Below are positions 5,755 to 53,737 of a stretch of 64,000 nt of DNA, in pieces. How positions within the stretch are numbered: position 1 is the first letter of the stretch; each line of letters opens with the position of its first letter. The notes beneath the pieces are model-generated. The model was not told the origin of the DNA and searched no databases. It saw only the letters and a list, made by a program, of their open reading frames with translations. The stretch lies in the NCBI RefSeq assembly GCF_055900595.2, contig NZ_CM148325.1. The stretch is one strand, 5' to 3'. A program made the position numbers and the translations under genes.

Positions 5755-6780
5755 TCAGGAATGTAGCGCTGAATGCGCGACAAAAGGTGTTTTCTGTTTG
5801 TGTTTTTTCTCCTGATACATCGCGATATCGGCAGCATGCAGGGCGCTGTCTGCATCGGTCGTTTCAGGATCGACTTCTACTATGCCAAGACTGGCACCAG
5901 GATAATACAAATCAACATCACCTAAGTGATATTCTCCGCGTATTTGCTGTTGAATACGTTCTCGCAGCGATGGAATATCCGCATTCTCATTGTTCAGTGA
6001 AACAACCAAAAACTCATCACCGCCGAGACGACCAATAACTTCGCCATTTTGCTGGAGCGTATTAAGGCGCTCGCCAACCTGAATAAGAAACAGATCGCCA
6101 CTATTATGACCAAAACGATCATTGATTAATTTGAAGTTATCCAGATCGATAAATGCGATCATTATCTTATGGTTAAGATGCCTCGCAAGAGAAAACAGCG
6201 TCGTCAGGTTTTCAAAAATCGCCCGCCGATTCGGTAGCCCGGTTAACGAGTCGGTATACGATTGCGCAATCAGTGCGGCATTTGCTTCGCGCAGCTGTTC
6301 AACCAGCGCCTCTTTTTGAATATATTGTGCAATCAGTCCGGCGAATAGCTGTAAAACCTGTTCCGCGCGTTCACTCCACTGGCGCTTCTCACTGCTGGCG
6401 GCGCAAAGTGTGCCATAGAATGATCCATCCGGTAAGTGAATTGGCGTGCTCAGAAATGTGGTGATGCCAAGATTTCGTGCCGCAACACAGTCGCCCCAAC
6501 GGTCGGGGACTTCATCGCTGAAAAAGCAGTTTTCATCAATGGCGCGTTTGCATAACGAGTAATCCCACGAGACGGTAAAATTCTCCGGGATGTGCATTTT
6601 CTGGCTATTACGGGCAAACATTATATGCTGCAGGCGCGCTTCGACATCCACTTTGGTCAGGTAGGTTGACTCCATATCAGTGACCATTTCCAGCATCTCC
6701 AGAAGCTGTCGGACCAGACTTTCCAGTGACTGTTCTTTGGCAAGGGATTGCGAGACGCGGGCGATAATCTGATCTGACAC
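5755..6780 (-). CDS. dgcP: Diguanylate cyclase (GAF-GGDEF)
   Basis: ORF track 5755-6909 trimmed to GTG start at VSDQIIARVSQ to give 341 aa as recalled; intact RLGGDEF motif. Confidence 0.88.
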   Translation of the reverse strand: MSDQIIARVSQSLAKEQSLESLVRQLLEMLEMVTDMESTYLTKVDVEARLQHIMFARNSQKMHIPENFTVSWDYSLCKRAIDENCFFSDEVPDRWGDCVAARNLGITTFLSTPIHLPDGSFYGTLCAASSEKRQWSERAEQVLQLFAGLIAQYIQKEALVEQLREANAALIAQSYTDSLTGLPNRRAIFENLTTLFSLARHLNHKIMIAFIDLDNFKLINDRFGHNSGDLFLIQVGERLNTLQQNGEVIGRLGGDEFLVVSLNNENADIPSLRERIQQQIRGEYHLGDVDLYYPGASLGIVEVDPETTDADSALHAADIAMYQEKKHKQKTPFVAHSALHS

Positions 6781-6962
6781 GAAACAACTCCAGGATACGG
6801 CGGGTAAATGCTGATTATTTAATCTTTGCAGGCATGATAAAACATCATCAACAAAGATGAAACAAGACGTAATATGTTTTGAGTGAATGTAATAAAAATA
6901 GTGCTGCAAAACAAAACGATACCGCGATACTCTAAGCTTGGATAAATATGTGAGATCAATAA

Positions 6963-7217
6963 ATGAAAATTATCAGTTTTGTTCTGCCTTGCTTGCTGGT
7001 CCTGGCTGGTTGTTCAACCCCTTCTCAGCCAGAAGCACCTAAACCGCCGCAGATTGGTATGGCAAATCCGGCGTCGGTCTATTGCCAGCAGAAGGGCGGG
7101 ACGCTCATTCCTGTGCAGACAGCGCAAGGGGTCAGCAACAATTGCAAATTACCGGGCGGTGAAACGATTGATGAATGGGCATTGTGGCGACGGGACCATC
7201 CGGCTGGTGAAAAATAA
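6963..7217 (+). CDS. yoaF: DUF333-family lipoprotein
   Basis: 84-aa ORF with signal peptide and lipobox LAGC. Confidence 0.8.
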   Translation: MKIISFVLPCLLVLAGCSTPSQPEAPKPPQIGMANPASVYCQQKGGTLIPVQTAQGVSNNCKLPGGETIDEWALWRRDHPAGEK

Positions 7218-7238
7218 CCGCCGGATGCTGCACTAAAA

Positions 7239-7586
7239 TCACAAGCTACGTAGCCAGTCTGCCAGCACCAGCGCATGGTTCTGTGTGGTGTTTTTTGCTG
7301 AGTAGAGCAGGGTCAGCGGCTGTTTTTTGGCGATGTCTGCCAGCCGCTTTCCTTCTTGCTCGTGTTGCGCCAGTTCTGCAAGATATTGCTCGCGAAAGGT
7401 TGCAAAATCGACGACTTCGCCGTGAAAGGCTTTGCGCAGCTCCGTTGACGGCGTGATTTCTTTATCCCACTCATCAAGGGCTAAATCGGTTTTTTTGATA
7501 CCGCGTGGCCAGAGGCGGTCGACCAGTACGCGATAACCATCGCTCTGTTCAGCCGGATCATAAACGCGTTTGCACTGAATATTCAT
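7239..7586 (-). CDS. yeaO: DUF488-family protein
   Basis: ORF track 7239-7607 trimmed to MNIQCKRVYDP (115 aa as recalled). Confidence 0.82.
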   Translation of the reverse strand: MNIQCKRVYDPAEQSDGYRVLVDRLWPRGIKKTDLALDEWDKEITPSTELRKAFHGEVVDFATFREQYLAELAQHEQEGKRLADIAKKQPLTLLYSAKNTTQNHALVLADWLRSL

Positions 7587-7640
7587 CGTATTTGTTCTTC
7601 CTTTCACGCATGATTTGTCACGTCACTATAGCACCGGATA

Positions 7641-8822
7641 TTAGCGAATTTCTTTGTCTCTCCCGGCGCAAAGTCCGAAAATCGCCATCAGTAGTGAAAG
7701 TATTGCAACACCCATCAGTGGTACGGACCAGTCACCGTTAGCATCGTGTATTTTACCCATCAGCGGCGGCCCACAGGCTGCCAGCAAATACCCGACGGAT
7801 TGTGCCATCCCCGAGAGTGCTGCCGCCTGATGCGCAGAACTTGCCCGAAGACCAATGAACGTCAACCCCAGTATCATTGTTGCGCCGGAACCAAAACCGA
7901 AAAGCAGAGTCCAGGTGATCGCGTGTGCTGGCATAAAGCAGAGCCCAACCGCGCCCACTGCGCACATCAAGGCAACGAACGCTGCAATACCACGCTGATC
8001 TTTCACATGATGTAAGAAAAGTGGGATCAGCAAACCGGGAGCTGCTGTGGCTAGTTGCAGCAAACCATGCAGTGAACCCGCCTGTGCTTCGCTATAGCCG
8101 TGACTGATGAGGATCGCCGGAAGCCAGCCAATAATCACGTAATAGACGAGTGAGTTGATCCCAAGAAACAATGTTACCTGCCAGGCAAGCGGCGAACGCC
8201 AGATACCCCGAGTATGTAAGGCGCGTGAGGTACTCAAATTTGCATGTTGTTGACTTCGCCACTGTGGCAGCCATAAAAAAAGAGCCAGCAGAGGAAAACA
8301 CATCAGCATGAGCAACGCGCCTTGCCAGCCAAAACCGTTCAAAGCCAGCGGCACGACCATAGCCGATCCCAGTGCCGCCGCAGCTCCCATTGTCAGGGAA
8401 TATGCGCCGGTAAGTCTGGCGACGGAATGAGGGAAATCGCGTTTAATTAATCCTGGCAGTAAGACATTGCCTAATGCAATCCCACCGCCAATGACCGCTG
8501 TACCGCCAAATAATAAGTAAGGCGAAGGGAGAGAGCGAATTGCGATACCTGCACAGATCAAAAGTAACGCGGCAAACAGGCTACGTTCCATACCAAAACG
8601 TCGCGCCACCGGGGCGGCAAGAGGTGAGATTAGCGCAAAGGCCAATAATGGCAGGGTGGTTAATAAGCCGGTTTGCGCCGTCGTTAGCGAGTAAGCGGAA
8701 CGAATCGTATCCAGTAACGGTGCTGCGCCGGTAAAGGTGACGCGTAATGTTGTGGCAATCATCAGAATGCCAGCGATAAGGACAATCCTGTTTTTGCCGC
8801 TTAATGAAGTTGAACAGGCCAT
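7641..8822 (-). CDS. yeaN: MFS transporter (CynX-like)
   Basis: 393-aa polytopic membrane ORF; synteny with nimR. Confidence 0.85.
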   Translation of the reverse strand: MACSTSLSGKNRIVLIAGILMIATTLRVTFTGAAPLLDTIRSAYSLTTAQTGLLTTLPLLAFALISPLAAPVARRFGMERSLFAALLLICAGIAIRSLPSPYLLFGGTAVIGGGIALGNVLLPGLIKRDFPHSVARLTGAYSLTMGAAAALGSAMVVPLALNGFGWQGALLMLMCFPLLALFLWLPQWRSQQHANLSTSRALHTRGIWRSPLAWQVTLFLGINSLVYYVIIGWLPAILISHGYSEAQAGSLHGLLQLATAAPGLLIPLFLHHVKDQRGIAAFVALMCAVGAVGLCFMPAHAITWTLLFGFGSGATMILGLTFIGLRASSAHQAAALSGMAQSVGYLLAACGPPLMGKIHDANGDWSVPLMGVAILSLLMAIFGLCAGRDKEIR

Positions 8823-8918
8823 ATGTTTCTCATTGATACAAACGAGGCTGTACCTTACCGTTTTTATTGTTATGTTGAATCAAGTTAAAATGACAAATTA
8901 TCGCTAAATTCGGACAAA

Positions 8919-9740
8919 ATGATGCACAGGTTGAATCTCAATGGTTATGAACCCGACCGACACCATGAAGCCGCGGTCGCATTTTGTATTCACGCCGGAA
9001 CGGATGAGTTAACCAGTCCTGTACATCAGCACCGCAAAGGGCAGCTGATACTGGCGCTACATGGTGCAATTACCTGTACGGTGGAAAATGCTTTGTGGAT
9101 GGTGCCGCCACAATATGCGGTTTGGATACCGGGCGGGGTGAAACATAGCAATCAAGTGACAGCTAACGCTGAACTCTGTTTTCTGTTTATAGAGCCCAGC
9201 GCAGTGACAATGCCGACAACATGTTGCACATTGAAAATATCGCCCTTATGCCGGGAATTAATTTTAACCCTGGCAAACAGGACGACGACTCAGCGTGCTG
9301 AGCCGATGACCCGCAGATTAATTCAGGTCCTGTTTGATGAACTCCCTCAGCAGCCACAACAACAGCTGCACCTGCCCGTTTCTTCTCATCCTAAAATCCG
9401 CACGATGGTGGAGATGATGGCGAAAGAGCCTGTCGAGTGGGGGGCATTGGGGCAATGGGCTCGCTTTTTTGCGATGAGTGAACGCAATCTTGCCCGACTG
9501 ATAGTGAAAGAGACGGGGTTGAGTTTTCGCCAGTGGCGTCAGCAGTTACAGCTGATTATGGCGCTTCAGGGATTAGTGAAAGGCGATACTGTACAGAAAG
9601 TTGCTCATACGCTGGGGTATGATTCAACAACGGCCTTTATTACTATGTTTAAGAAAGGCCTGGGGCAAACGCCAGGCCGATATATTGCGGGATTAACTAC
9701 TGTTTCCCCACAATCAGCGAAACCAGACCCGCGGCAATAA
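8919..9740 (+). CDS. nimR: AraC-family transcriptional regulator
   Basis: 273-aa ORF with C-terminal AraC-type HTH ([25 protein letters not shown]); divergent from yeaN. Confidence 0.85.
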
Positions 9741-10143
9741 GCGGGCCAACCGGTACGCCGCGAAACAGCGCCACGCCCAAAACAGTGCCCACCAGCAGCC
9801 CGGCGACCAGTTGCGGCTGGCTGCCCATTAACGTCACGCCGCGCCCACCTAGCCAGGAGACAATAACGCCTACTGCAATTGCCACCAGCGATTTCCAGTT
9901 CAGAAACGAGTGAATCAGGGTTGAGGGCGGTAGCGTCCCGCTGGCGATGGGGGCCATAACGCCAATCGTCAGAATGATTATCCCGATACTTAGCCCCTGT
10001 TTTTCAATCCACGGGAAAAAGGTGCTTAACGGTGTGACGCGGACAATGATTAACACCAGAATTGAAACGGCGACAGTGGTGTTATGACTGATAAAGCCCA
10101 GCGCAGCTAACCCGAGCAGGATCAGCAAAGTGACATCAAACAT
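9697..10143 (-). CDS. yeaL: DUF441/UPF0756 membrane protein
   Basis: 148-aa hydrophobic ORF; 3' end overlaps nimR 3' end by 44 nt (convergent). Confidence 0.85.
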
Positions 10144-10312
10144 CGTGGTTTCCTTGCCAAAAAATAATAAGCCTGCTTACTTTACGCTTGCTGCAGGAAG
10201 GAAGTAGAAAATCTTTACGTTTTTTGCATAAAAAATCAGGCGAACTGTCATCAAACTGCCATTTGTGCACGCTAACAATAACGTGAAAACAGCTATCTCC
10301 CCGGGGCATACT

Positions 10313-10417
10313 ATGAACGATCAAATGTTTGTCGAGACACTGATTATCACGTCATCGTTTTTTGCCATTGCTGTTGTGCTGGTTTTGTCCGTTCTGCTTA
10401 TTGAACGGACAGGCTAG
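10313..10417 (+). CDS. yoaI: 34-aa small membrane protein YoaI
   Basis: Manual translation [34 protein letters not shown]; stop TAG directly abuts the yeaK stop on the opposite strand. Confidence 0.55.
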
Positions 10418-10921
10418 TTACGCAGTGCGGCGGAAATTGACCAGTTCTGGTTGCGCAATGCGCAAATAATCCGCGGTTTTCAAAATAACGGATTTATCCA
10501 GCATGCCTGCATTGAAGGCGATTTCATCAAATCGTTCGAAGAGTAGGGGGTCGGCAACCAGTTTGAGTTTTGGATGGAAGCTGAAAGGGGGGATCGCGCC
10601 GAAGACACAGCCTGTGAGTTCATCGACTTCCGCCGGGCTGGCCAACGAAGCGCGTAATCCGCCTATATGGATGGCAAGTTGGCTCAGATCGGCCTGTTGA
10701 TCGGCAGCGAGGATCGCCAGAACATGTTGATTTACGCCATTGCCTTTGACTTTACATACCAGTGCCTTAGCCCCCTGGCCTAAAGCGGTGCCACGAATTT
10801 CTGACACCGCTTCGCATTTACCTACCGCCTCATGGGTAACGACGCGGAAGTCAGCACCTTCTTGTGATAATAAAGCGATTAACCGCTGATGCGTCACGCT
10901 TCCTTTAGCCATTTCAGTCAT
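10418..10921 (-). CDS. yeaK: YbaK/ProX-like aminoacyl-tRNA deacylase domain protein
   Basis: 167-aa ORF; family signature and synteny. Confidence 0.85.
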   Translation of the reverse strand: MTEMAKGSVTHQRLIALLSQEGADFRVVTHEAVGKCEAVSEIRGTALGQGAKALVCKVKGNGVNQHVLAILAADQQADLSQLAIHIGGLRASLASPAEVDELTGCVFGAIPPFSFHPKLKLVADPLLFERFDEIAFNAGMLDKSVILKTADYLRIAQPELVNFRRTA

Positions 10922-10963
10922 TTCACGCTCCTGAGATTACAAGCAAACAACCACAGAAGATTA

Positions 10964-12454
10964 TCATGAACGGCTGTTTTTGTTCTGCTTATTGACATAT
11001 AAACGCTCATCGGAAGCTTTATACGCATCATGTAACGTATCGTTTTCTTTCATCGCATAAATACCGGAAGAGAAGCCGATCTCTTTCTGCGGCGCGATAT
11101 GTTGCAGACGTTTTTCGATACGTTCAGGCAGTTGTGCTGCAATTTGCGGCGTCGAATCGACAAGAATGATGCAGAATTCATCGCCACCGAGTCGGATGGC
11201 ATAATCACTTTTACGAATCGACTGTTTAATCGCCTGAGCTAATAACGTAATCGCTAAATCTCCTTCCTGATGACCGAGCGTGTCATTTATTTGCTTTAAC
11301 TTGTCCATGTCAATTGCAATAAACATCACCGAAGAACCAGATTGCACCAGTTTTTGCAACCGCTGCTCCAGTTCAGGGGTTAATATTTTGCGATTATACA
11401 GTCCGGTCATCGCATCACTAATATTTTCTCGCGACACATTTTGGTATAAACGGAAGTGCATCCGCACCATATTCAGCAAAATTAACGCCGTCAAAATCCA
11501 GAACAGAACGCTTTTCCACGAAGATGTGATAAAGTAAAGAATATCAATGGATAACGATACACGAATGCCGCCCGGTAAGTCATGGACGTAACTGACATAC
11601 TGGAACAGATTATCTTCGCTCTGGTTGATGATAATGTCGCGCCCAGAATCTGTATCGGTTAGCGTGACATTGAGAAAACGCCAGAGGAGAGGGCGGTCAT
11701 GCGTGTAAAAGATATTCCGCAGATTGTTTTTGTTAATATCCAGCAGCACAATTCCTTTTAGCTGCCCTGCAACATACACTGGCGTCAGCAAACTCATCAC
11801 GTTCTGTTTAGTACGCTGATCCTGGTAAATGCTCGATAATACGGTGCGACCGGTAAAAACTTTTTCAATATCTTTGCGATCGATGCCAATGCTTCCTGAC
11901 TGCAGGAAGGACCAGTTATTCATCGCAAAGTACTCAACATTAACCGGCTCATAAAAATAGACATAGAGGTCATTGAGATCGAGATAATAGTGAAATTTCT
12001 CTTCGGCCATTCCAAGACCTGAACCATAATCATCCTGGTGGCGGTTGCCTTCCACTGCCTGATCAAAAGCGGGTAATAGTGCTGCAGCTTCCACAATTGT
12101 GTCGCATTCAGTGGATGCGGTTTGTAGTGTACCGTGTAAGCCCGTGTACTTATGGGCAGTCAGGTTTAAGCCATGGGTATTATTGGCAGACTCAAAAGCC
12201 TCGCAGATGGTACGCCGCTGTTCTGGCGACACTTCCGACTGCTCAGCAGCGAGAGCGCGCATCACATGCGCGGCAATACTCTGATTTTGATACTTGTCAT
12301 AAAGAAAGGAGGAATCTGCTCTCTGCACGATATAGCGCAGATAGGCACTCATTGCTCTGTCGCTGGCGACAAGTTCAAAAATAAGGAAGGAAGATGTCAG
12401 CACAATGACACTTGCGGCGATAAAATGCCGGAGCATTCTATGGTGCAATTTCAT
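10964..12454 (-). CDS. dgcJ: Membrane-anchored diguanylate cyclase
   Basis: ORF track 10964-12634 trimmed to MKLHHRMLRHF (496 aa as recalled); intact RLGGDEF motif. Confidence 0.88.
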   Translation of the reverse strand: MKLHHRMLRHFIAASVIVLTSSFLIFELVASDRAMSAYLRYIVQRADSSFLYDKYQNQSIAAHVMRALAAEQSEVSPEQRRTICEAFESANNTHGLNLTAHKYTGLHGTLQTASTECDTIVEAAALLPAFDQAVEGNRHQDDYGSGLGMAEEKFHYYLDLNDLYVYFYEPVNVEYFAMNNWSFLQSGSIGIDRKDIEKVFTGRTVLSSIYQDQRTKQNVMSLLTPVYVAGQLKGIVLLDINKNNLRNIFYTHDRPLLWRFLNVTLTDTDSGRDIIINQSEDNLFQYVSYVHDLPGGIRVSLSIDILYFITSSWKSVLFWILTALILLNMVRMHFRLYQNVSRENISDAMTGLYNRKILTPELEQRLQKLVQSGSSVMFIAIDMDKLKQINDTLGHQEGDLAITLLAQAIKQSIRKSDYAIRLGGDEFCIILVDSTPQIAAQLPERIEKRLQHIAPQKEIGFSSGIYAMKENDTLHDAYKASDERLYVNKQNKNSRS

Positions 12455-12634
12455 GATAAATGGCACTCCTTCGGTTAGTGAAACGAGAAAACCAGATAAA
12501 GTTCGATTGCGGCCTGGCACAGGGGCGCTAATTATACTCATCTCTGCGCCGCTGGGGAGGGGAAATTTAGGGGTAATAGTAATAAATTGTATGCAAAAGC
12601 CACGCAAAAAGCATGGCTCTGAATATTTTTGCAC

Positions 12635-14083
12635 TTAAATATGATGAATAATCACTTTGTTGCCCCCCTCGCTTTTCGCTTCGCGTAAGGCTTTATCTGC
12701 TTCCGTCATGACAAGCGAGATATTACGCGTGTCACCCGTTGAAAAAACCGTGCCAATACTGATGGTCATTTGTTCAGGAACATCATATCTGTTACTAAAA
12801 CCGGTCAGGAGTTCGACATTTTTACGCATACGTTCCGCAATGATTTTTGCCTGGGCACTATTGAGTTCGGTAAATAGCAAGCCAAACACCTCACCCTCCA
12901 GTCGCGCTAAAATATCATCGGGGCGGATGCTTTGCTGGATAATATCGACAATTGAAACCAGCACTTTATCACCCACACGATGTCCCCATTGGGCATTGAT
13001 GCGCTTGAACTGATTAATATCAACCAGCATGACACAAAAGTCCTTAACAACAGGTCGCGACAATAATGACTCTACGCTGTTGAAAAAGTAGCGCCGATTA
13101 TAAATATTGGTCAGTACATCATGAACTGCCAGTTTGCTGGAGAGTTGCAGTTCCTGAAAAATGTTATAAATCAGAAAAGACACAACAAACAGTTTACTGG
13201 AAACTTCAATCCCGCGACTGATATACCAGATGGTGTAATTATACTCATCCAGAGTCAGTAGAAGTAAGTTGCAGCATAGCGATGCCAGACATAATAATGC
13301 TATTAACGGCCATAGTTCGCTGGCTAATCGTGTACGCATGATAATAAAGAACAGTAAAAATGCCCACAGACAAACCAATATTTTTGTATAGTTGATTCCC
13401 CAGGTCGCAGTATGGTTGTCCGGACAGTAATCGACGACATACAAAGAATAGTCAGCGTTATAACTGCTCAGATTGTGTGCCAGAAGGGGAAATACTAAAA
13501 AAGGGATCAGCGTCAGTAACAGGATCCCCGTTTTTTTCTTATTGTTGTTAAGAATGTTGTCTTTACCATAACAAAAGAGCGCCAGCGAGGTTAAACAAAT
13601 AAAACTGAGTTGGCGGAAAATATAGAAAATAGAAACATCATTCGACTTTGTCTGGATCAGTGTACTGCCGTTGATTGGTTTATGGATAATTACAATGGTT
13701 TCAACTAAATAGATAAGGCCACTTAAAAATGCAAGGCTTAAAATGAGTGTTGGTAAAATTTGTTTGTTAGTGAAATATTTCATCAACATGAAAAGAAAAA
13801 TGACGGCGTTAAGGAAGAACAAAGCCACAACAACCATCAGGTAATTCATCTGTGGAATGAGTTTTACATTCGTGTTTTCGTTATATAAGGTGGTGATGCA
13901 AAATAAAATTAACGTCAGCAATAAGCTGAAAATAAAAAAGCCTTGAGCTTTTAATTTTTGTGTACCCATAGAAACCATAAAAAGGAGAGCAATGTGAGTG
14001 CTGGATTTTATTGATGGCAGAGATATATGGTTTTGACCAAGATCAATTTTCGGTAACGATGCAAAATAATTAAAGAATAACAC
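12635..14083 (-). CDS. dgcI: Degenerate GGDEF-domain membrane protein
   Basis: 482-aa ORF with many TM helices; signature motif reads EGEVF rather than GGDEF; true start may be a few codons upstream. Confidence 0.82.
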   Translation of the reverse strand: MLFFNYFASLPKIDLGQNHISLPSIKSSTHIALLFMVSMGTQKLKAQGFFIFSLLLTLILFCITTLYNENTNVKLIPQMNYLMVVVALFFLNAVIFLFMLMKYFTNKQILPTLILSLAFLSGLIYLVETIVIIHKPINGSTLIQTKSNDVSIFYIFRQLSFICLTSLALFCYGKDNILNNNKKKTGILLLTLIPFLVFPLLAHNLSSYNADYSLYVVDYCPDNHTATWGINYTKILVCLWAFLLFFIIMRTRLASELWPLIALLCLASLCCNLLLLTLDEYNYTIWYISRGIEVSSKLFVVSFLIYNIFQELQLSSKLAVHDVLTNIYNRRYFFNSVESLLSRPVVKDFCVMLVDINQFKRINAQWGHRVGDKVLVSIVDIIQQSIRPDDILARLEGEVFGLLFTELNSAQAKIIAERMRKNVELLTGFSNRYDVPEQMTISIGTVFSTGDTRNISLVMTEADKALREAKSEGGNKVIIHHI

Positions 14084-14255
14084 GGGTAAATACGTGTTGA
14101 ACGAAGCATTTTTCCGAATGATTGTTTTCTGGAACTAAATTGTGTAAAGGTTGTGCTGTTATATTTAAAGCGATTGTAAGTTAATGTATATAATAAATGA
14201 GATGATTTACAGTGTGCTAAAAAACAGCCAGGCGACGATGACCCGGCTGATAGTT

Positions 14256-15551
<1,296 letters not shown>

Positions 15552-15651
15552 CTACATTTGCCAACTGTTTGCTACGCCTGTGTTGCCGCTTCTCTGGCCC
15601 ACGGTTCGCTGTCGTTGTAGGCCCGGTAGCATGCGTACCGGGCCATGGTTG

Positions 15652-17586
15652 TTAAGACGATTTACGTACGCGCAAATACCATTCGCACAGTAAACGCACC
15701 TGTTTACGGGTGTAGCCTTTTTCCATCATACGGTCGACAAAATCGTCGTGTTTCTTCTGCTCGTCGGTTGACGTTTTGGCGTTAAACGAAATAACCGGCA
15801 ACAGCTCCTCGGTATTAGAGAACATTTTCTTCTCAATAACCGTGCGCAGTTTTTCATAGCTGGTCCAGTTCGGATTGCGTCCGCTGTTATTCGCTCTGGC
15901 GCGCAGTACGAAGTTGACAATCTCGTTGCGGAAATCTTTTGGATTACTGATCCCCGCCGGTTTCTCAATTTTCTCCAGCTCAGCGTTGAGAGATTCGCGG
16001 TCAAATAGCTGCCCGGTATCCGGGTCGCGATACTCCTGATCCTGAATCCAGAAATCTGCATACGTGACATAACGGTCAAAAATGTTTTGTCCATATTCAG
16101 AATAGGATTCAAGATACGCAGTCTGAATCTCTTTACCGATAAACTCGGCATATTTCGGAATCAAGTAACCTTTCAGGAACTCGAGATAACGCTCAGCCTG
16201 CTCCTGAGGGAACTGCTCGCGCTCGATCTGCTGTTCCAGGACGTAGAACAGATGAACAGGGTTTGCTGCCACTTCCACGTGGTCGAAGTTGAACACGCGA
16301 GAGAGGATCTTAAACGCAAAACGCGTGGACAGACCGTTCATCCCTTCATCAACGCCTGCGTAGTCACGATATTCCTGATACGACTTGGCTTTCGGATCGG
16401 TGTCTTTCAGACTTTCGCCATCATAAACCCGCATCTTCGAATAAATGCTGGAGTTTTCCGGCTCTTTCAGACGCGAAAGAATGGAAAAACGAGACAGCGT
16501 TTCCAGCGTGCCAGGTGCGCAGGGGGCGTGAGTCAGTTCACTGTGATTAAGCAATTTCTCGTAGATTTTGATCTCTTCGGAAATACGCAAGCAATATGGC
16601 ACCTTCACGATATAAACACGATCGAGGAAGGCTTCGTTGTTCTTGTTATTACGGAAAGTGACCCATTCGGATTCGTTCGAATGGGCGAGAATAATCCCGT
16701 TAAACGGCAGGGCGGAGATACCTTCCGTCCCGTTGTAGTTACCTTCCTGAGTGGCGGTTAACAGGGGATGCAGCACTTTAATCGGGGCTTTAAACATCTC
16801 GACAAACTCCATGATCCCCTGGTTGGCGCGGCATAGTGCACCGGAATATCCGTAGGCGTCCGGATCGTTCTGCGCGTAGTGTTCGAGTTTACGGATATCG
16901 ACTTTCCCTACCAGCGCTGAGATGTCCTGGTTGTTCTCATCGCCAGGTTCCGTTTTGGCGATAGCAATTTGTTGCAGAATTGACGGCCAGACCTTTACCA
17001 CCCGGAACTTAGTAATATCGCCACCAAATTCATGCAGGCGTTTTGCTGCCCACGGCGACATGATGGTGCCAAGATAGCGTCGAGGAATGCCATACTCTTT
17101 TTCCAGAATCTGCGCATCTTCTTGCGGATTGAAAAGACAGAACGGATGATCGTTGACCGGGCTCCGCTCACCGTTAGCGCTTAATACATAGATCGGCACG
17201 AGCTGCATTAATGATTTCAGTCGCTCAGCAAGCGATGATTTACCCCCACCCACAGGCCCCAGCAGATACAGGATTTGTTTCTTCTCCTCCAGCCCCTGAG
17301 CCGCGTGTTTCAGATAAGAGACAATCTGTTCAATCGCGTCTTCCATGCCGTAAAACTCTTCAAAGGCTGGGTAACGTGCAATGACCCGGTTAGAAAAGAG
17401 TCGAGAAAGTCTGGGTTCCTGGGCTGTATCGACCATGACAGGCTCACCGATAGCCATCAATAGCCGCTCAGCCGCGTTGGCATAAGCACTGCGATCTTGC
17501 CGACAAGTGGTAAGAAACTCCTGCAGTGTGAACTCTTCGTTCTTGGCAGCTTCATATCGCTGGCGATAGTGATCGAATATATTCAT
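15652..17586 (-). CDS. yeaG: PrkA-family serine protein kinase
   Basis: 644-aa ORF with Walker A GPVGGGKSS; length and synteny match. Confidence 0.93.
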   Translation of the reverse strand: MNIFDHYRQRYEAAKNEEFTLQEFLTTCRQDRSAYANAAERLLMAIGEPVMVDTAQEPRLSRLFSNRVIARYPAFEEFYGMEDAIEQIVSYLKHAAQGLEEKKQILYLLGPVGGGKSSLAERLKSLMQLVPIYVLSANGERSPVNDHPFCLFNPQEDAQILEKEYGIPRRYLGTIMSPWAAKRLHEFGGDITKFRVVKVWPSILQQIAIAKTEPGDENNQDISALVGKVDIRKLEHYAQNDPDAYGYSGALCRANQGIMEFVEMFKAPIKVLHPLLTATQEGNYNGTEGISALPFNGIILAHSNESEWVTFRNNKNNEAFLDRVYIVKVPYCLRISEEIKIYEKLLNHSELTHAPCAPGTLETLSRFSILSRLKEPENSSIYSKMRVYDGESLKDTDPKAKSYQEYRDYAGVDEGMNGLSTRFAFKILSRVFNFDHVEVAANPVHLFYVLEQQIEREQFPQEQAERYLEFLKGYLIPKYAEFIGKEIQTAYLESYSEYGQNIFDRYVTYADFWIQDQEYRDPDTGQLFDRESLNAELEKIEKPAGISNPKDFRNEIVNFVLRARANNSGRNPNWTSYEKLRTVIEKKMFSNTEELLPVISFNAKTSTDEQKKHDDFVDRMMEKGYTRKQVRLLCEWYLRVRKSS

Positions 17587-47244: not shown

Positions 47245-48129
47245 TCAGAACAGGTGATCCCACAGTGTGACCAGCAGGTGGATAATGCGGTCCCGGGTTT
47301 TGCGCAGAAGCTGTAACATCCAGGCCGGAAAACTGAAACGGGCAACGGCGTCGTCAAAACTTTTCCCGATGGTTTCACCAAAAGTCTGTTGTGCGTGTTT
47401 CTGGACCCGTTCAGAGCGGTTTTCCCCCCGGATATGTGAATAAACCGCGCTGGTTGCCTGTGGCGGCAGGGCGTGGATCATCAGTGACACCAGTGCCGGA
47501 ATATTCCAGCCGACAGGCGCGGCAACGGGGAGTACCGGAAATGATGAAGGGAACAGGGTTGCCACCCGGGCTGTCACCGTCGCCAGCGAGAGTTCCTGGT
47601 GACGGGACGGGCATTTTTCTGTGTCGTTCCATTCTTCAGCAGGAAATACGCGATCGGCATGGCTGAGAACAAACAGAAAACGCGAGGGATCTGCACCTTC
47701 ATTCAGTAAAAACTGATGCATGGCGATGTCGGCAGCATACGCACGTTCATCAGCCCGCAGGATCCAGATAATCAGATCCAGTTCGGGCAGTAACTGACTG
47801 TAAAGTGCCCGGTATTCCTGATCATGCTGTGGTGTTTCGCCAGTGCCGGGCAGATCGACCAGCGTCATTCTTCGTTCACCGGGCTGAAAGGTAAGACGAT
47901 GAGCCTGACGGGTGCAGCCGTTCAGCGGATGCGTGGCGCAGACACGGGACTGAAAAATGGCATTGCACAGGCTGCTTTTTCCGGCACCGGATTTACCCAT
48001 AATGCCAATCACGGGCTCGTAATGAATAACACTGTGGAGATGTTCAAGGATTTTCTGGCGAATTTCTTCAGGAAGAAACGTCAGATATGATTTCACTTGT
48101 GCGGAGAGGGAAGAATGGCTGAATGACAT
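47245..48129 (-). CDS. Island-associated GTPase (YeeP/YfjP/YkfA family)
   Basis: 294-aa ORF with P-loop GIMGKSGAGKSSL and DLPG switch motif. Confidence 0.8.
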   Translation of the reverse strand: MSFSHSSLSAQVKSYLTFLPEEIRQKILEHLHSVIHYEPVIGIMGKSGAGKSSLCNAIFQSRVCATHPLNGCTRQAHRLTFQPGERRMTLVDLPGTGETPQHDQEYRALYSQLLPELDLIIWILRADERAYAADIAMHQFLLNEGADPSRFLFVLSHADRVFPAEEWNDTEKCPSRHQELSLATVTARVATLFPSSFPVLPVAAPVGWNIPALVSLMIHALPPQATSAVYSHIRGENRSERVQKHAQQTFGETIGKSFDDAVARFSFPAWMLQLLRKTRDRIIHLLVTLWDHLF

Positions 48130-48234
48130 ACCGGTATCCTGTTGATTTCACTGAACCGGATCACACTAATCCGGTTTATCATTCAGGTAATATGGGCGTG
48201 AAAAAATCTGGAGTGACAAAGTTCGGGAGGAGTG

Positions 48235-49185
48235 ATGGCATCACTGTCGATTAATACGCTACGCCGAATGAGCATTTGTAAAAGTCAGGCCTGGAAAGAT
48301 ACCCAGCGAATACTGAAGCGTAGTGGACTTGTGTACAGAGGGGAACGGTCAGAATCGTTTGATCCTGAGAAACATTTTAATCGTTATACGGTGCGTTATC
48401 TGTACCTGCTTAACATAATTGCGCTTAAGATAAGGTCGGTTAGTAAATTTTCCTGTTGGATCGAGGTGGGACAATGCCATCGTATGACTGGTAAACATTT
48501 ATCTCTTAATGCCCCGCCTTTTATGCTGATTCCGCGTAGTATCCGGAGAAAAGTGGATGGATTCAGACAGTCAAAAGGTGAAGCAACCCCAAAATCGGCT
48601 CAACCGTTCACGGGCAGTTTGTATGAGGTTTTGAGAAAGGAGAGCGATTCAGCTAAGCTGGACGCATGGATTGCTGAACTGCCTCTGAACTTGCAGGAGG
48701 AGGGAAAGGAAATCTCAGTCATGGGATTTAGTCCACGGGCTGTGGCCCGACCTGTTCTTCGGTCAGCATCCCCGACGTTTGAACTGTTTTATCAGGAGTA
48801 TCAATCCCTAAGATTAAAATCTGTTTTTAAATTTGAACCAAGATTTGAACAACTTTTAACAAGACTGAGCTTTAGAAAACAATCAATTCTCAGAAAACAA
48901 CAATACAGGGTTAAATCGCAATTACTGGAGAGACTGGGGAATGTGTTGTTTTTCACGTCGCTTTATAACCAGGGATGTTTAGAGGAGTTTATAAATGCAC
49001 TTGTGGAAAAGGAGGACATTTATCTGAAAATGTCCCCTGGGGAGGAAAAGGTGAAAGCACACCAGAAAATGGTTAACTACATTGAAGCGTTCTGCAACAA
49101 AATGACGGAAAAATACCTGATGCCCGCAGCAAGCAGACACTACAAAAAGAAGAAAATCGCCAGGAGCGAAAGTGGTGAAAGTTAA
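48235..49185 (+). CDS. Hypothetical basic protein (gene A of convergent AT-rich pair)
   Basis: 316 aa from ATG at 48235 (GGAGG upstream); low-GC codon usage unlike the flanking backbone; no family recognised. Confidence 0.5.
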   Translation: MASLSINTLRRMSICKSQAWKDTQRILKRSGLVYRGERSESFDPEKHFNRYTVRYLYLLNIIALKIRSVSKFSCWIEVGQCHRMTGKHLSLNAPPFMLIPRSIRRKVDGFRQSKGEATPKSAQPFTGSLYEVLRKESDSAKLDAWIAELPLNLQEEGKEISVMGFSPRAVARPVLRSASPTFELFYQEYQSLRLKSVFKFEPRFEQLLTRLSFRKQSILRKQQYRVKSQLLERLGNVLFFTSLYNQGCLEEFINALVEKEDIYLKMSPGEEKVKAHQKMVNYIEAFCNKMTEKYLMPAASRHYKKKKIARSESGES

Positions 49186-49970
49186 TCCAGTCTATCGTAC
49201 AGAATCAGTTGTTCCAGAATAGCCTGCTGTGTTGTTTTCCGCTCTCTGGTCAGTCTGTCCAGAGCGCTTTTTGCGGATGGCGATATCTTTACGTTGATTT
49301 GTACCCGTTTATCTTTTTTTCCATCGATAAACTGTTTTCTGAATGCATTGTGCATCTTGTCGAAAAATCTTTCTTTTGCAGCGAATCCTAGGTGAAATTC
49401 TTTTGGCGTCAGTAAACAGGGTGTGTCTGTGGGGAATAACATTTTTAGTAAAACTACAATGGCAATATATCTTTCGTTATCATTTACAGGATTAAACCAG
49501 GAAAGATATGTGGGTGAGATACGTGCATCAATATATTCCCATGCCCATTTCAGTTGTTCGGTATTCTTTTTAAGCCATTTGGCTTCGTTTCTCTTTTCGA
49601 GTCCCAGCCAGTTTTGATGCATTATTGAGATAATCCGATCTGCTTCCCCATAAAGGATTAACGCATTAATCCATTTCCCTATAACATTCAGTCGTGTTTC
49701 ATGACTTGAAGGAATAATTGTCATGGGGTTATCCTTCATAACGATCACCCCCTTCAAGGCAGAGTTGAACTCAGATTCATTATTAAGTTTAAGTTTTTCG
49801 GGAACTGTATGAGACATAATTAACCAGAACCAGAATGCTGCAATTTCATTTTTTCTGATCCATTCAGGTATGTGATTATCTGCCAGATTATTATCATTCA
49901 ATAAATGCTCGGTTGTTTTATTTTTCCAGTCATATCTATTCACGTTATAACCGCCTTTATATTGTTTCAT
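49182..49970 (-). CDS. Hypothetical protein with C-terminal ribbon-helix-helix-like motif (gene B)
   Basis: 262 aa from ATG at 49970 (GAGG upstream; ORF track extends to a GTG at 50057); C-terminus KRVQINVKISPSAKSALDRLTRERKTTQQAILEQLI has strand-helix-helix pattern; stop overlaps gene A stop in a TTAA. Confidence 0.5.
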   Translation of the reverse strand: MKQYKGGYNVNRYDWKNKTTEHLLNDNNLADNHIPEWIRKNEIAAFWFWLIMSHTVPEKLKLNNESEFNSALKGVIVMKDNPMTIIPSSHETRLNVIGKWINALILYGEADRIISIMHQNWLGLEKRNEAKWLKKNTEQLKWAWEYIDARISPTYLSWFNPVNDNERYIAIVVLLKMLFPTDTPCLLTPKEFHLGFAAKERFFDKMHNAFRKQFIDGKKDKRVQINVKISPSAKSALDRLTRERKTTQQAILEQLILYDRLD

Positions 49971-50087
49971 CTGATTACGCCTCAATCGTTTTCTTTTCTG
50001 GTGATTTTCACCATCACATGTCAGTTGTATATGCAAGGGGATCAATAAAAATATCACCCTGCAAGCACTTCAAAGCTGATTATGGGG

Positions 50088-50151
50088 ATATTCTAGAACT
50101 ATTCACAAAACTATTCCAGACATATCAAGAACTATTTCTTGACCTATTCAT
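50088..50151. repeat. Four iteron-like direct repeats A(A/C)CTATT(C/T) upstream of gene B
   Basis: tagaactattcac, aaaactattcca, agaactatttctt, gacctattcat within 64 bp. Confidence 0.45.
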
Positions 50152-50323
50152 AATAAAATAAAACATGCTATCAACTACGGCTCATATTCTCCTTGGGGGT
50201 GTCGTTGTACTGTTCGACTGTTCTTGTGGTCAGATTAACAATCTGAAGAGTAAAAGCGACAGTAATCTGTCTGTTATAGTGGCGATAAAAACACTGAATG
50301 CGCATCCTGTATGTGAAATCCTG

Positions 50324-50590
50324 TCATGTAGAGCAGTAAGCAATGACAGACATGCATGTTATATGTGAAGGGGGCCGGGAGACGACATAATCAGTATGGC
50401 TGTCATTCTGGTTGTAAAACGCGATCACTTTCCGGGGGTAAAAGATGATATGGAGGTTGACAAACGGTTTGCTTCGGATTGTCTTTTCTGGGGCCTGAAA
50501 TACGAGGGCAGAAAAATAATTCCAGAGTAAATCTGCTCTGTTTTTAGGACAGAAAACTCCATGCTGGCTGTAAAAGTGAAAAATTAACAC
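50324..50590 (-). pseudogene. 3' portion of an unidentified ORF interrupted by IS10
   Basis: 88-aa frame begins inside the IS10 target duplication; the same frame is open across the duplication into the sequence on the far side of IS10 (51935 onward). Confidence 0.35.
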
Positions 50591-50596
50591 CCAGTA

Positions 50597-51925
50597 CTGA
50601 TGAATCCCCTAATGATTTTTATCAAAATCATTAAGTTAAGGTAGATACACATCTTGTCATATGATCAAATGGTTTCGCCAAAAATCAATAATCAGACAAC
50701 AAAATGTGCGAACTCGATATTTTACACGACTCTCTTTACCAATTCTGCCCCGAATTACACTTAAAACGACTCAACAGCTTAACGTTGGCTTGCCACGCCT
50801 TACTTGACTGTAAAACTCTCACTCTTACCGAACTTGGCCGTAACCTGCCAACCAAAGCGAGAACAAAACATAACATCAAACGAATCGACCGATTGTTAGG
50901 TAATCGTCACCTCCACAAAGAGCGACTCGCTGTATACCGTTGGCATGCTAGCTTTATCTGTTCGGGCAATACGATGCCCATTGTACTTGTTGACTGGTCT
51001 GATATCCGTGAGCAAAAACGGCTTATGGTATTGCGAGCTTCAGTCGCACTACACGGTCGTTCTGTTACTCTTTATGAGAAAGCGTTCCCGCTTTCAGAGC
51101 AATGTTCAAAGAAAGCTCATGACCAATTTCTAGCCGACCTTGCGAGCATTCTACCGAGTAACACCACACCGCTCATTGTCAGTGATGCTGGCTTTAAAGT
51201 GCCATGGTATAAATCCGTTGAGAAGCTGGGTTGGTACTGGTTAAGTCGAGTAAGAGGAAAAGTACAATATGCAGACCTAGGAGCGGAAAACTGGAAACCT
51301 ATCAGCAACTTACATGATATGTCATCTAGTCACTCAAAGACTTTAGGCTATAAGAGGCTGACTAAAAGCAATCCAATCTCATGCCAAATTCTATTGTATA
51401 AATCTCGCTCTAAAGGCCGAAAAAATCAGCGCTCGACACGGACTCATTGTCACCACCCGTCACCTAAAATCTACTCAGCGTCGGCAAAGGAGCCATGGAT
51501 TCTAGCAACTAACTTACCTGTTGAAATTCGAACACCCAAACAACTTGTTAATATCTATTCGAAGCGAATGCAGATTGAAGAAACCTTCCGAGACTTGAAA
51601 AGTCCTGCCTACGGACTAGGCCTACGCCATAGCCGAACGAGCAGCTCAGAGCGTTTTGATATCATGCTGCTAATCGCCCTGATGCTTCAACTAACATGTT
51701 GGCTTGCGGGCGTTCATGCTCAGAAACAAGGTTGGGACAAGCACTTCCAGGCTAACACAGTCAGAAATCGAAACGTACTCTCAACAGTTCGCTTAGGCAT
51801 GGAAGTTTTGCGGCATTCTGGCTACACAATAACAAGGGAAGACTCACTCGTGGCTGCAACCCTGCTTACTCAAAATCTATTCACACATGGTTACGTTTTG
51901 GGGAAATTATGAGGGGATCTCTCAG
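50597..51925 (+). mobile_element. IS10 (IS4 family), complete 1329-bp copy
   Basis: Outside end CTGATGAATCCCCTAATGATTTT at 50597, inside end ...GGGGATCTCTCAG at 51925; perfect 9-bp target-site duplication CACCCAGTA at 50588-50596 and 51926-51934. Confidence 0.93.
50704..51912 (+). CDS. IS10 transposase
   Basis: 402-aa ORF MCELDILHDSLYQFCPELHLKRLNSLTLACHALLDCKTLTLTELGRNLPTKARTKHNIKRIDRLLGNRHL... matching recalled IS10/Tn10 transposase almost exactly. Confidence 0.95.
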   Translation: MCELDILHDSLYQFCPELHLKRLNSLTLACHALLDCKTLTLTELGRNLPTKARTKHNIKRIDRLLGNRHLHKERLAVYRWHASFICSGNTMPIVLVDWSDIREQKRLMVLRASVALHGRSVTLYEKAFPLSEQCSKKAHDQFLADLASILPSNTTPLIVSDAGFKVPWYKSVEKLGWYWLSRVRGKVQYADLGAENWKPISNLHDMSSSHSKTLGYKRLTKSNPISCQILLYKSRSKGRKNQRSTRTHCHHPSPKIYSASAKEPWILATNLPVEIRTPKQLVNIYSKRMQIEETFRDLKSPAYGLGLRHSRTSSSERFDIMLLIALMLQLTCWLAGVHAQKQGWDKHFQANTVRNRNVLSTVRLGMEVLRHSGYTITREDSLVAATLLTQNLFTHGYVLGKL

Positions 51926-53005
51926 CACCCAGTATGTATGGAAGTCTGAAGATGTTGAGAATGTCGGTATGATACTATATACACATATTTTACTAAGTAT
52001 TTTTACTAAGCATTTCAGTAAGTGTTATACACGTATTTTCTACTAAGTGTTTTACCAGACATACACGTGTTTTCATAAACAGCCCTATAAGTGTTTTCAT
52101 TAAGCATTGCTGTACACATTGCTTTGTCTGAAACACATCCAGTTTAGTAAATCTTTACGTTAGCTAAAATCAGTTTAAAGCTGCTGTAAAACCTTTCTGT
52201 TTAAGCAATCAATCTGCTATTCGATTTTACTGATGTTGCGTTTAACCTTTTCTGAGATTTCGAGTTTCGACGTTAGCATGAGAAAAGTATCTTTACGCTA
52301 AATCAACCCGAACTTTCCTGAAGTAATCTGACGTTTTTTTCGATGTGCTTACGACGATTCTGTTAAACGACTTTCTGGATGTTTTGATAACAATCAGATT
52401 GAGGCATTAACGATTCCTGACGTTTTCTTTTCCGTGTAAGGTCATTCTTTTTGTCATGAGGTTTCTTCTTGCATTGCGAAAGTGTGATGAACGGTTTTGG
52501 TGTTTTTGATTCAGATAAGGTTTACGTTATCGATGGTTAACCGTTTTTATGGTGCGTAGTGAAACGTAACTTTTTCAGGATGAGAAAATCGATTCTGATG
52601 TTGGTGATTTTTGTTCTTGTGGCGGGGTTTATCTGTAAACAGGTTTTAAACGTGTCATTCACATCCGTGATTGAGTTGTGTGATTAAGCTGTAGGTTTTG
52701 GGGTTGTTGTTGATTTGCATTACCAGGAAGCGTTCTGGTTGCGTTTCTGGTGTTTTGTTCGAATGTTCTGTGGATCCTTTTCCCTTCTGACTTTTCTCGT
52801 TGTCCATGTCGTTTTTAAATCCATTCGCTGTTCTTGAGTGTTTTTACCCTGCGTGTAGAATTATCTTTTCGTTCCGGGATGGTTTGTTCCGTTTCAATCA
52901 CTCTTAATCAGAGAGTTGTAGCATTGCTCAATGCCGGATGCCGTAAAGTTTTACCGCGGTGATTAATGATGTGAAGTCAATCCAAATCAACGGAGATCTC
53001 TCATC

Positions 53006-53737
53006 ATGAATCAACCAATACACAATGCTTACTGGTTATCCCGTTTTGAAAGTATTCTCAACAGTGCCCTGGCGCAGCACCGTGCCGTCTCGTTAATCCG
53101 GGTGGATTTACGTTTCCCTGAGTATATGCCTGCCACCATCATGGATACCGATTTAGATTCAGCGGTGATTTCTCGTTTTTTTGCATCCCTGAAAGCAAAA
53201 ATTCAGGCTTACCAGCGACATAAACGACGTGCCAACAAGCGTGTGCGTGCAACCACTCTGCGTTATTTCTGGTGTCGGGAGTTTGGCAAGGAAAAAGGCA
53301 GGAAACATTATCACGTGATATTACTGCTCAACAAAGATACCTGGTGCTCGCCAGGGGATTTCACCGTTCCTTCTTCGCTGGCGACACTGATCAAGCTGGC
53401 ATGGTGTAGTGCTCTGCATCTTGAGCCCTGGCAGGGTAATGGACTGGTTCATTTTTCCAGGCGGACGCCTTTCCGTAAACCGACATCATCTGATGCTCGC
53501 CCTTCTTCCGATGATACGCCTTTGTCGGGTGGATGTTCTGATACCAGGAAGGCTTCAGACAAAAAGCCGGGTGAAGCCGCTGTTCTCTGGATCAAGCGTG
53601 GTGATGTGGAAGCGCTGCAGAAAGCCCGGAACAGAGCCAGTTATCTCGTGAAATATGAGACGAAGCAGCATGACGGTTCCGGGCAACGTAATTATGGTTG
53701 CAGTCGTGGGCCGGGGCGTCTGCTGGATGGCAGGTGA
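53006..53737 (+). CDS. YagK/YfjJ-family protein (island-associated, inovirus Gp2-like)
   Basis: 243-aa ORF with ...LIRVDLRFPEY...KHYHVILLLNKD... motifs; preceded by conserved leader motif. Confidence 0.6.
   Translation: MNQPIHNAYWLSRFESILNSALAQHRAVSLIRVDLRFPEYMPATIMDTDLDSAVISRFFASLKAKIQAYQRHKRRANKRVRATTLRYFWCREFGKEKGRKHYHVILLLNKDTWCSPGDFTVPSSLATLIKLAWCSALHLEPWQGNGLVHFSRRTPFRKPTSSDARPSSDDTPLSGGCSDTRKASDKKPGEAAVLWIKRGDVEALQKARNRASYLVKYETKQHDGSGQRNYGCSRGPGRLLDGR

Follow-up and report, generated by a model that had tools for sequence, protein, structure and literature searches.

What is the pair of convergent, AT-rich genes that borders a CP4-like gene block in a 64,000-nucleotide stretch of contig NZ_CM148325.1 (NCBI RefSeq assembly GCF_055900595.2; the whole stretch is called the window here), and what could its two proteins do together? 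Gene A occupies 48235-49185 on the plus strand and encodes 316 amino acids (aa) from the ATG at 48235 (WP_000157733.1). Gene B occupies 49182-49970 on the minus strand and encodes 262 aa from the ATG at 49970 (WP_000816188.1). Both products carry the RefSeq name 'hypothetical protein'. We favour, with belief and doubt in about equal measure, a reading in which B would be an autoregulating ribbon-helix-helix (RHH) regulator acting on an array of GAATAG repeats and probably also controlling the AlpA / Gp2-like arm of the island, with A as a possible partner or modulator.

The convergent pair and its conservation across islands

The preliminary description of the locus had reported two facing open reading frames (ORFs) of 316 and 262 aa with overlapping stop codons, and inspection of the sequence confirmed both. 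The TAA of A lies at 49183-49185 and that of B, on the complement, at 49182-49184, giving a 2-nt overlap within the TTAA at 49182-49185. The stop-to-stop spans in the ORF listing are 48232-49185 on the plus strand for A and 49182-50057 on the minus strand for B. The Shine-Dalgarno sequence of B is GAGG, 9 nt before its ATG. That of A, GGGAGGAG, is a strong ribosome-binding site in the 105-bp divergent intergenic region (48130-48234) between A on the plus strand and a GTPase-family gene on the minus strand. A spurious antisense ORF was considered for A and rejected: the frame is kept at 21-30% identity in distant taxa, the ribosome-binding site is strong, and the ratio of non-synonymous to synonymous substitution rates (dN/dS) is <1.

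The pair recurs widely. Among 5426 complete E. coli genomes, 1871 have a match to the 2.3-kb pair region, over at least 80% of its length in 497 of them, and some genomes hold several copies of the region, with up to 6 matching places. In a copy free of insertion sequences (L001; loci used for comparison are given by L numbers), one strand carries CbtA/YeeU and, further on, RadC, antirestriction, DUF932 and GTPase genes, followed by A in antisense and B on the GTPase strand. Beyond B lie 1.64 kb without an ORF of >88 aa, and then, on the opposite strand, genes for an inovirus-Gp2 / YagK_YfjJ protein, a 190-aa protein and an AlpA-type regulator. In the window, the GTPase-family gene (YfjP/YeeP-like, 47245-48129, minus) is on the same strand as B and heads a DUF932-antirestriction-RadC-YeeU/CbtA block; the CP4-like block left of the pair comprises DUF932, antirestriction, RadC/JAB, DUF987 and YeeU/CbtA. 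The Inovirus Gp2 / YagK_YfjJ family gene (53006-53737, plus) is divergent from B across a non-coding gap. The same layout, overlapping stops included, recurs in diverged E. coli alleles, with 45-70% identity in B (25% in a 281-aa type) and 56-82% in A.

Our own hidden Markov models (HMMs) of A and B were run over all ORFs of every fetched locus. A B-family ORF was found convergent directly after every A-family ORF (22 loci, ~12 of them distinct), including loci from Escherichia, Citrobacter amalonaticus, Hafnia alvei and a Serratia-type contig. A profile HMM of A, searched against 1.84 billion representatives, gave ~17 further full-length clusters at 21-30% identity, whose sources include Citrobacter, Hafnia and Serratia. 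In all six contexts fetched for these distant homologues, A is convergent with a B-like gene of ~260-320 aa, and the 3' ends overlap by up to 26 nt or are separated by up to 121 nt. A Gp2-like gene lies on the far side in the five of the six contexts that extend further, and AlpA was called in four of these. B is divergent from AlpA / Gp2-like (YagK/YfjJ) genes in all 13 contexts, including Klebsiella islands, L022, L023 and a fragment of plasmid pNDM5_LS003. In L022, L023 and the plasmid fragment, A, B and the Gp2-like gene are kept and the GTPase gene is gone. Thus, the pair has a closer link with the AlpA / Gp2 arm than with the GTPase block.

The low GC content of the pair is as previously noted, at 0.35-0.46 across 48000-50750 compared with 0.50-0.60 leftward in the window and 0.44-0.46 in IS10. 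It had been taken as a sign of separately acquired cargo, an interpretation that the comparisons do not support. The AT-rich tract reaches ~53000, spanning A, B and the long non-coding gap past IS10, so that low GC is common to all of the control region as far as the Gp2-like gene. All A-bearing islands sampled, those of Escherichia, Citrobacter, Hafnia and a Serratia-type contig among them, have the pair at the same place, which is not how variable cargo behaves. Judged by this sequence conservation, the pair is a conserved core of CP4-57/CP4-44-like Enterobacterales islands and not a one-off cargo. The two genes also encode real protein families, as supported by ORFs kept at 21-30% identity across genera and dN/dS of 0.2-0.5 in most pairs. 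For B the ratio is 0.2-0.46; for A it is ~0.4-0.5 in most pairs and 0.7-0.9 in the mosaic C-terminal half when compared with the most divergent allele.

Protein A is basic (isoelectric point 9.9), predicted to be all-helical and without a strongly hydrophobic segment. Its N-terminal ~200 aa are conserved and its C-terminal half is mosaic; the family-wide motifs are S.AW.NTQ..LKRSG, HLY.L, IVP..IRRKA..F.Q, GSLY, LEC.RLG and LG.ALFF..LY. Searches of Pfam, NCBIfam, PADLOC, PHROGs and the PDB gave no match for A, even with a 21-sequence profile, and there was no AlphaFold family match either. The sequence has no P-loop motif (GxxxxGK[ST]), the family-library searches found no enzymatic or effector domain, and no known toxin family or fold was matched in Pfam, NCBIfam, PADLOC, PHROG or PDB. 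The AlphaFold2 model of A, from a 19-sequence alignment, has a predicted local distance difference test (pLDDT) score of 46.8 and is unusable. Comparison of A and B with tblastn against phages showed no phage homologue of either. That A and B are paralogues was rejected (hhalign probability 0.2%). Literature searches by accession, by yfjJ/yagK/Gp2, by island gene sets and by PF10723 returned nothing on A or B. Profile and structure searches gave no characterised family for A or for the N-terminal domain (N-domain) of B.

The position of the pair bears on the proposal that A/B is an undescribed anti-phage defence or anti-defence system, with B as sensor or regulator and A as effector. The HMMs found neither A nor B in CP4-57 of K-12, where the interval from yfjJ to yfjP (L024, NC_000913.3 2760547-2768573) consists of abpB, abpA, yfjM, rnlA and rnlB, and so holds the abpA/abpB genes ('anti-bacteriophage protein') and the rnlA/rnlB toxin-antitoxin pair. 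AbpAB and RnlAB thus fill the same interval between the yfjJ-like and GTPase genes of a related island: depending on the island lineage, one slot is filled by defence cargo or by the A/B pair. This is a positional hint towards defence, to which may be added that antirestriction and RadC genes adjoin and that A and the B N-domain are fast-evolving and mosaic, as conflict genes often are. However, AbpAB and RnlAB have no sequence relation to A/B and are strain-specific cargo, whereas A/B is conserved across genera as a fixed syntenic backbone. PADLOC-DB v2.0.0 gave nothing for A or B and, for 10 distant A homologues, one spurious JetA match (E value 0.011). The pair shows no enzymatic or effector domain of any kind, and its dN/dS is <1. 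We consider a defence function quite unlikely.

The C-terminal domain of B and the repeats upstream of B

B consists of a hypervariable, Trp-rich, helical N-domain and a C-terminal RHH-like domain. The N-domain (residues 1-205; 49356-49970, minus) is predicted to be helical, carries the motifs PEW..AAFWFW and KWLKKN..EWAW.Y, and has no sequence or structure relative beyond its own family in Pfam, NCBIfam, PADLOC, PHROG, PDB or AlphaFold. The putative CopB/RepA2-like RHH domain comprises residues 222-257 (RVQINVKISPSAKSALDRLTRERKTTQQAILEQLIL; 49200-49307, minus), as indicated by profile matches and predicted helices. The C-terminal 50 residues of B hardly vary between alleles whose overall identity is 45-70%. 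NCBIfam PRK13702 ('replication regulatory protein RepA', CopB/RepA2) matches the C-terminus of the window B with an E value of 0.025 and six of nine further diverse B members with E values of 2e-4 to 0.023, all below the cut-off. RepC_IncLM and a LexA-regulated CopG-type protein also turn up among the matches of B members. Pfam RHH_1 (PF01402) has an E value of 0.17 with the whole protein, improving to 0.0097 when the domain is taken alone; for RepB-RCR_reg (PF10723) the two values are 0.24 and 0.0086, and these matches too stay below threshold. Precomputed PF10723 matches are present on B C-terminal fragments and on B homologues, and one B relative has a weak HicB match (E value 0.069). PDB sequence searches with A, B, the RHH profile and the A profile gave nothing meaningful.

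The AlphaFold2 monomer model of B has helices at residues 231-242 and 247-257 after a basic segment, and an alternating strand-type residue pattern is visible in the sequence RVQINVKIS. Taken together, the profile matches and the model suggest that the C-terminus of B is an RHH domain, which is probable but not proven. The preliminary description had quoted this C-terminal sequence correctly and had seen an RHH-like pattern in it; the recurring sub-threshold matches to RHH_1, RepB-RCR_reg and CopB/RepA2 and the two helices predicted in the right place bear it out. Its remark that a C-terminal RHH is unusual needs qualifying: the placement is uncommon, but it is not unique, as HicB antitoxins carry a C-terminal RHH. 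The B homologues of the Klebsiella/Enterobacter/Citrobacter type are ~365 aa long, with an acidic low-complexity N-terminal extension of ~130 aa (L015 6614-7711; L014 6626-7713, the latter frameshifted).

Upstream of B lie five direct repeats with the core GAATAG in the direction of B (50088-50149, minus), spaced by 12, 21, 12 and 11 bp, which form a candidate B operator. The four copies described earlier as A(A/C)CTATT(C/T) were found at 50097, 50109, 50130 and 50142, and a fifth, degenerate copy, ATATTC, lies at 50088-50093. Three other copies of AMCTATTY occur in the 64 kb, the number expected by chance for the whole window. Markov simulations of a 2.6-kb AT-rich stretch gave three copies of one 7-mer within 50 nt in 1.1% of cases, and only three such 7-mer clusters are present in the window. 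By itself, the repeat array of the window is modestly significant. The evidence for the repeats is strong because the array recurs upstream of diverged B alleles. L010, whose B is 70% identical, has four GAATAG words spaced by exactly 11 bp; L004 (B 45% identical) has three, one of them degenerate, 11 bp apart; and L002 (B 50% identical) has two. The arrays follow an invariant GTTGATAGCATGTTTT ~120-190 bp upstream of the B start, in otherwise poorly conserved sequence, and no phased GAATAG pairs occur elsewhere in the window, L010, L004 or L002. In the L006 allele, the RHH strand reads RVQISALIS in place of RVQINVKIS, and the repeats are three AAATATT words at 12 bp. This co-variation of the repeat word with the RHH strand gives, though from few alleles, the strongest reason to regard the repeats as putative sites of the RHH domain. 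The expectation that pair and repeats form a conserved unit was thus borne out, as every A locus has a convergent B and the repeats are conserved and change with the RHH strand.

Two further elements lie close to the repeats. Sigma-70-like hexamers, TTGTGA-18-CATAAT (50079-50108, minus), are a weak match to a possible B promoter and overlap two of the repeats. The B leader also holds, ~30 nt upstream of the start, a perfect palindrome with 6-bp arms, TGGTGATTTTCACCA (49999-50013), which L010 retains almost unchanged and which might serve as another operator or fold into an RNA hairpin.

Sliding-window comparison of the alleles showed that the end of the GTPase gene and the first half of A are 85-98% identical, and that nucleotide identity falls to 10-60% in the B N-domain and repeat region (49370-50180). 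The non-coding block at 50182-50530 is 95-98% identical among the window, L010 and L002. The variable cassette, formed by the B N-domain and the repeat region, therefore sits between conserved flanks. Within B, the RHH segment of the window (within 49200-49970) is 93-100% identical to L002 and L004 and 72-82% identical to L010, whereas the N-domain shows the reverse pattern, with the window closest to L010. These opposite affinities indicate recombination breakpoints inside B, so that the two domains recombine independently.

An RHH domain of a kind common in antitoxins, together with the two-gene arrangement and the YeeU/CbtA toxin-antitoxin genes in the same island, raises the question of whether the two genes work as toxin-antitoxin (addiction) partners, A being the toxin and B the RHH antitoxin. 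HicB-type antitoxins are two-domain proteins with a C-terminal RHH, as B probably is. However, the partner A is convergent, the proteins are large, and no homology to HicA or another toxin was found, unlike in HicB systems. The A/B genes are not a pair of small co-directional genes, for they are convergent and not operonic, and 262 and 316 aa are far above the typical size of such partners. The C-terminal position of the RHH and the failure of A to match any toxin family also argue against a toxin-antitoxin function. B occurs without A in Klebsiella-type islands and A never without B, which is the opposite of what an orphan toxin would lead one to expect and equally fits a regulator. PADLOC, Pfam and NCBIfam searches of the pair gave no support for a toxin-antitoxin or a known defence system. 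We regard the addiction module as highly improbable.

The non-coding gap, IS10 and a possible origin

The gap beyond B is interrupted in the window by a complete IS10 of 1329 bp (50597-51925, plus) with a 402-aa transposase and a 9-bp target duplication, CACCCAGTA, at 50588-50596 and 51926-51934. IS10 is inserted 627 bp upstream of B and is not part of the module; in the window strain it separates B and the repeats from the Gp2-like / AlpA arm. Between the repeats and IS10, and adjoining the former, is an unannotated non-coding block (50160-50530) that starts with an invariant AAAACATGCTATCAA and is 95-98% identical where B is 50-70% identical. A query of 50160-50596 matches 962 of the 5426 E. 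coli genomes (539 over at least 80% of its length), almost always without an annotated feature. Rfam searches of the module and gap (E value <= 1) gave only a chance PhotoRC-I match inside the Gp2-like gene, and RNAalifold on the conserved block, with 4 sequences only, gave no covariation signal.

In L001 (10872-12514), L002, L004, L006, L010, L021-L023 and L025, B and the Gp2-like gene are without exception 1-1.9 kb apart, with AT-rich, ORF-poor sequence between them. So great a length is unusual for a bacterial intergenic region, and the feature is conserved across genera. In L014-L016 and L018, alpA is within ~0.4-0.7 kb of B. The plasmid fragment L025 (pNDM5_LS003, NZ_OP290546.1 ~6400-16750) has the order AlpA, Gp2-type genes, YfjI-family gene, gap, B and A. 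This plasmid is an IncI-gamma/K1 conjugative NDM-5 plasmid, and the fragment is located beside repA, without a GTPase gene or toxin-antitoxin block.

A second repeat array occurs in the gap at 51988-52053 (L001 11549-11602), with ~five TTTTACTAAGYRT copies at 12-13 bp interleaved with TATACAC(A/G)T words. An indel lies beside it (window 52040-52133 compared with L001 11603-11643). The second array might be bound by some other protein of the island, or it might belong to an origin. Within the pair itself, terminator-like hairpins for B are located at 49120-49169 (minus), inside the 3' coding end of A, and one for A at 49572-49585 (plus), inside B. If these hairpins are used, the A and B mRNAs would overlap in antisense by tens to hundreds of nucleotides.

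The gap and its repeats bring in the possibility that the GAATAG repeats are a structural origin, transfer origin or centromere, with B as an accessory RHH protein for a Gp2-like initiator of the rolling-circle type and A as another accessory factor. RHH proteins act at such sites: TraY and TrwA at oriT, ParG, ParR and omega at centromeres, and CopG and CopB next to the rep gene. The best-scoring families for the C-terminal 50 aa of B, all below their cut-offs, are CopB (RepA2) of IncFII, RepC of IncL/M and CopG / RepB-RCR_reg, which are small RHH repressors of plasmid rep genes, so the RHH of B matches plasmid replication-control families best. Like CopB and CopG, B is near a replication-initiator-like gene (Gp2 / YagK_YfjJ), with repeats near its promoter. 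In most loci, the pair is accompanied by the Gp2-like gene and by at least 1 kb of non-coding gap, even without the GTPase and on the plasmid, and the same gap contains the second array of TTTTACTAAG x5. The 11-bp phasing of the direct repeats resembles that of parC-type centromeres; as with ParG, ParR and omega, the gene of B, a probable RHH protein, is preceded by several direct repeats spaced by roughly a helical turn (11-12 bp).

There are also differences. CopG has 45 aa and CopB 86 aa, whereas B has 262 aa and places a 205-aa N-terminal domain ahead of the RHH. Unlike CopB and CopG, B is located on a chromosomal island, divergent from the Gp2-like gene and 1-3 kb away from it instead of in its operon. 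ParG, ParR and omega are small proteins with the RHH at or near the N-terminus. Unlike in ParG/ParF, ParR/ParM and omega/delta, no partition NTPase is adjacent to B: A has neither a P-loop nor a Pfam domain and so offers no ParA/ParM-like partner, and L022, L023 and the plasmid copy lack the GTPase. The repeats are close to the B start, as with autoregulatory operators, and the literature searched holds no demonstrated replication or transfer of these islands. An origin or centromere is in our judgement unlikely.

A regulatory reading of B and its partner

The observations on B are best accommodated if B is a regulator. In the proposed mechanism, the CopB/RepA2-like RHH of B, presumably as a dimer, would bind the phased GAATAG repeats 120-180 bp upstream of its own start, and this binding would lead to autoregulation. 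B would probably also govern the excision and replication arm of the island (AlpA / Gp2-like, YagK/YfjJ), which we propose because B is always divergent from this arm. The hypervariable 205-aa N-domain, recombining independently of the RHH, is taken as a likely oligomerisation or sensing domain. A may act as partner or modulator of B, either via protein contact or through convergent transcription. What the sequences show is how the genes are built, that pair and repeats are conserved, that B has RHH-like profile matches, that the repeats change with the RHH strand, and that the alleles are mosaic; DNA binding, repression, the target operons and any interaction between A and B are what we infer.

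Several observations weigh against such a regulator. Every RHH match of B stays below the curated family thresholds, and the monomer model has coil (pLDDT <50) where a strand is expected, at residues 222-230 (RVQINVKIS). The promoter hexamers over the window repeats have no counterpart in L010 or L004; promoter-like sites in the region are fewer than in shuffled sequences, and no reproducible promoter could be placed. The E. coli repeats are ~1.4 kb (without IS10) from the start codon of the Gp2-like gene, which makes control of the Gp2-like arm by B a conjecture. As for A, nothing was found that points to an A-B interaction: the C-terminal type of A does not track the B allele, with A type I pairing with three B types, and thus gives no co-evolution evidence for A-B contact. 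B is found without A only in Klebsiella-type islands, where the 365-aa B is directly upstream of and co-directional with the GTPase gene; this form is also reported from Enterobacter, Citrobacter and Cronobacter. The conserved synteny could also stem from shared island ancestry alone, without functional coupling.

If so, A and B would be independent backbone genes that are adjacent by common descent of the island, and the repeats would regulate B alone. The lack of co-variation between A C-terminal type and B allele, the Klebsiella-type islands with B and without A, and the unrelated profiles of A and B would all be expected in this case. However, at 21-30% protein identity the two genes still converge tightly in several genera, with 3' ends that overlap by at most 26 nt or stand at most 121 nt apart, and this arrangement persists in differing surroundings, namely an ICE-like (integrative and conjugative element) context, a plasmid, and islands with or without the GTPase. 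An absence of functional coupling between the two genes is improbable in our view.

The autoregulating RHH regulator can be compared with the control regions of other mobile elements. The layout around B is like that of an immunity-type or SaPI (Staphylococcus aureus pathogenicity island) Stl-type master repressor. As in the regions of SaPI Stl, lambda cI-type immunity and SetR of SXT, B is divergent from an excision/replication arm, a hypervariable cassette of regulator domain and operator region is located between conserved flanks, and some genomes have several copies. B differs from these repressors in its probable RHH, since Stl, cI and SetR have helix-turn-helix domains and documented induction. 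Another difference is that the RHH and the GAATAG sites are conserved here and the non-DNA-binding domain varies, B being a putative repressor. A 2025 preprint on Pseudomonas islands describes AlpA, Gp2-like and RadC proteins as core functions of a comparable island class, and the A/B pair is not described there.

This likeness allows a more far-reaching proposal, in which B, the GAATAG operator array and A would form an unrecognised master switch of CP4-like islands. B would then be Stl-like: its hypervariable N-domain might sense a phage- or host-derived signal, or A might counter B, and once B was released, the AlpA / Gp2-like arm would be switched on, with excision, replication or transfer as the outcome. 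We hold this to be possible but doubtful.

The islands concerned are of wide occurrence. CP4-57/CP4-44-type islands are among the commonest accessory elements of E. coli, with matches in about a third of the complete genomes, and CP4-type islands carry toxin-antitoxin, antirestriction, adhesin and defence genes. The literature searched offers no explanation of how the excision/replication arm of these islands is controlled beyond AlpA. If B were only a local autoregulator, the result would be an ordinary one, adding one more RHH regulator in a mobile element. As it stands, the A/B module appears to pair an orphan protein with an RHH regulator that has a novel domain; it is widespread and conserved, with a function that is read from its sequence context and nothing mechanistically surprising so far. 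What is new is a candidate regulator for which a candidate operator can be named, conserved in genera from Escherichia to Hafnia and in a Serratia-type contig, together with two protein families without a characterised relative, A and the B N-domain. With these in hand, the control of CP4-like islands becomes directly testable.

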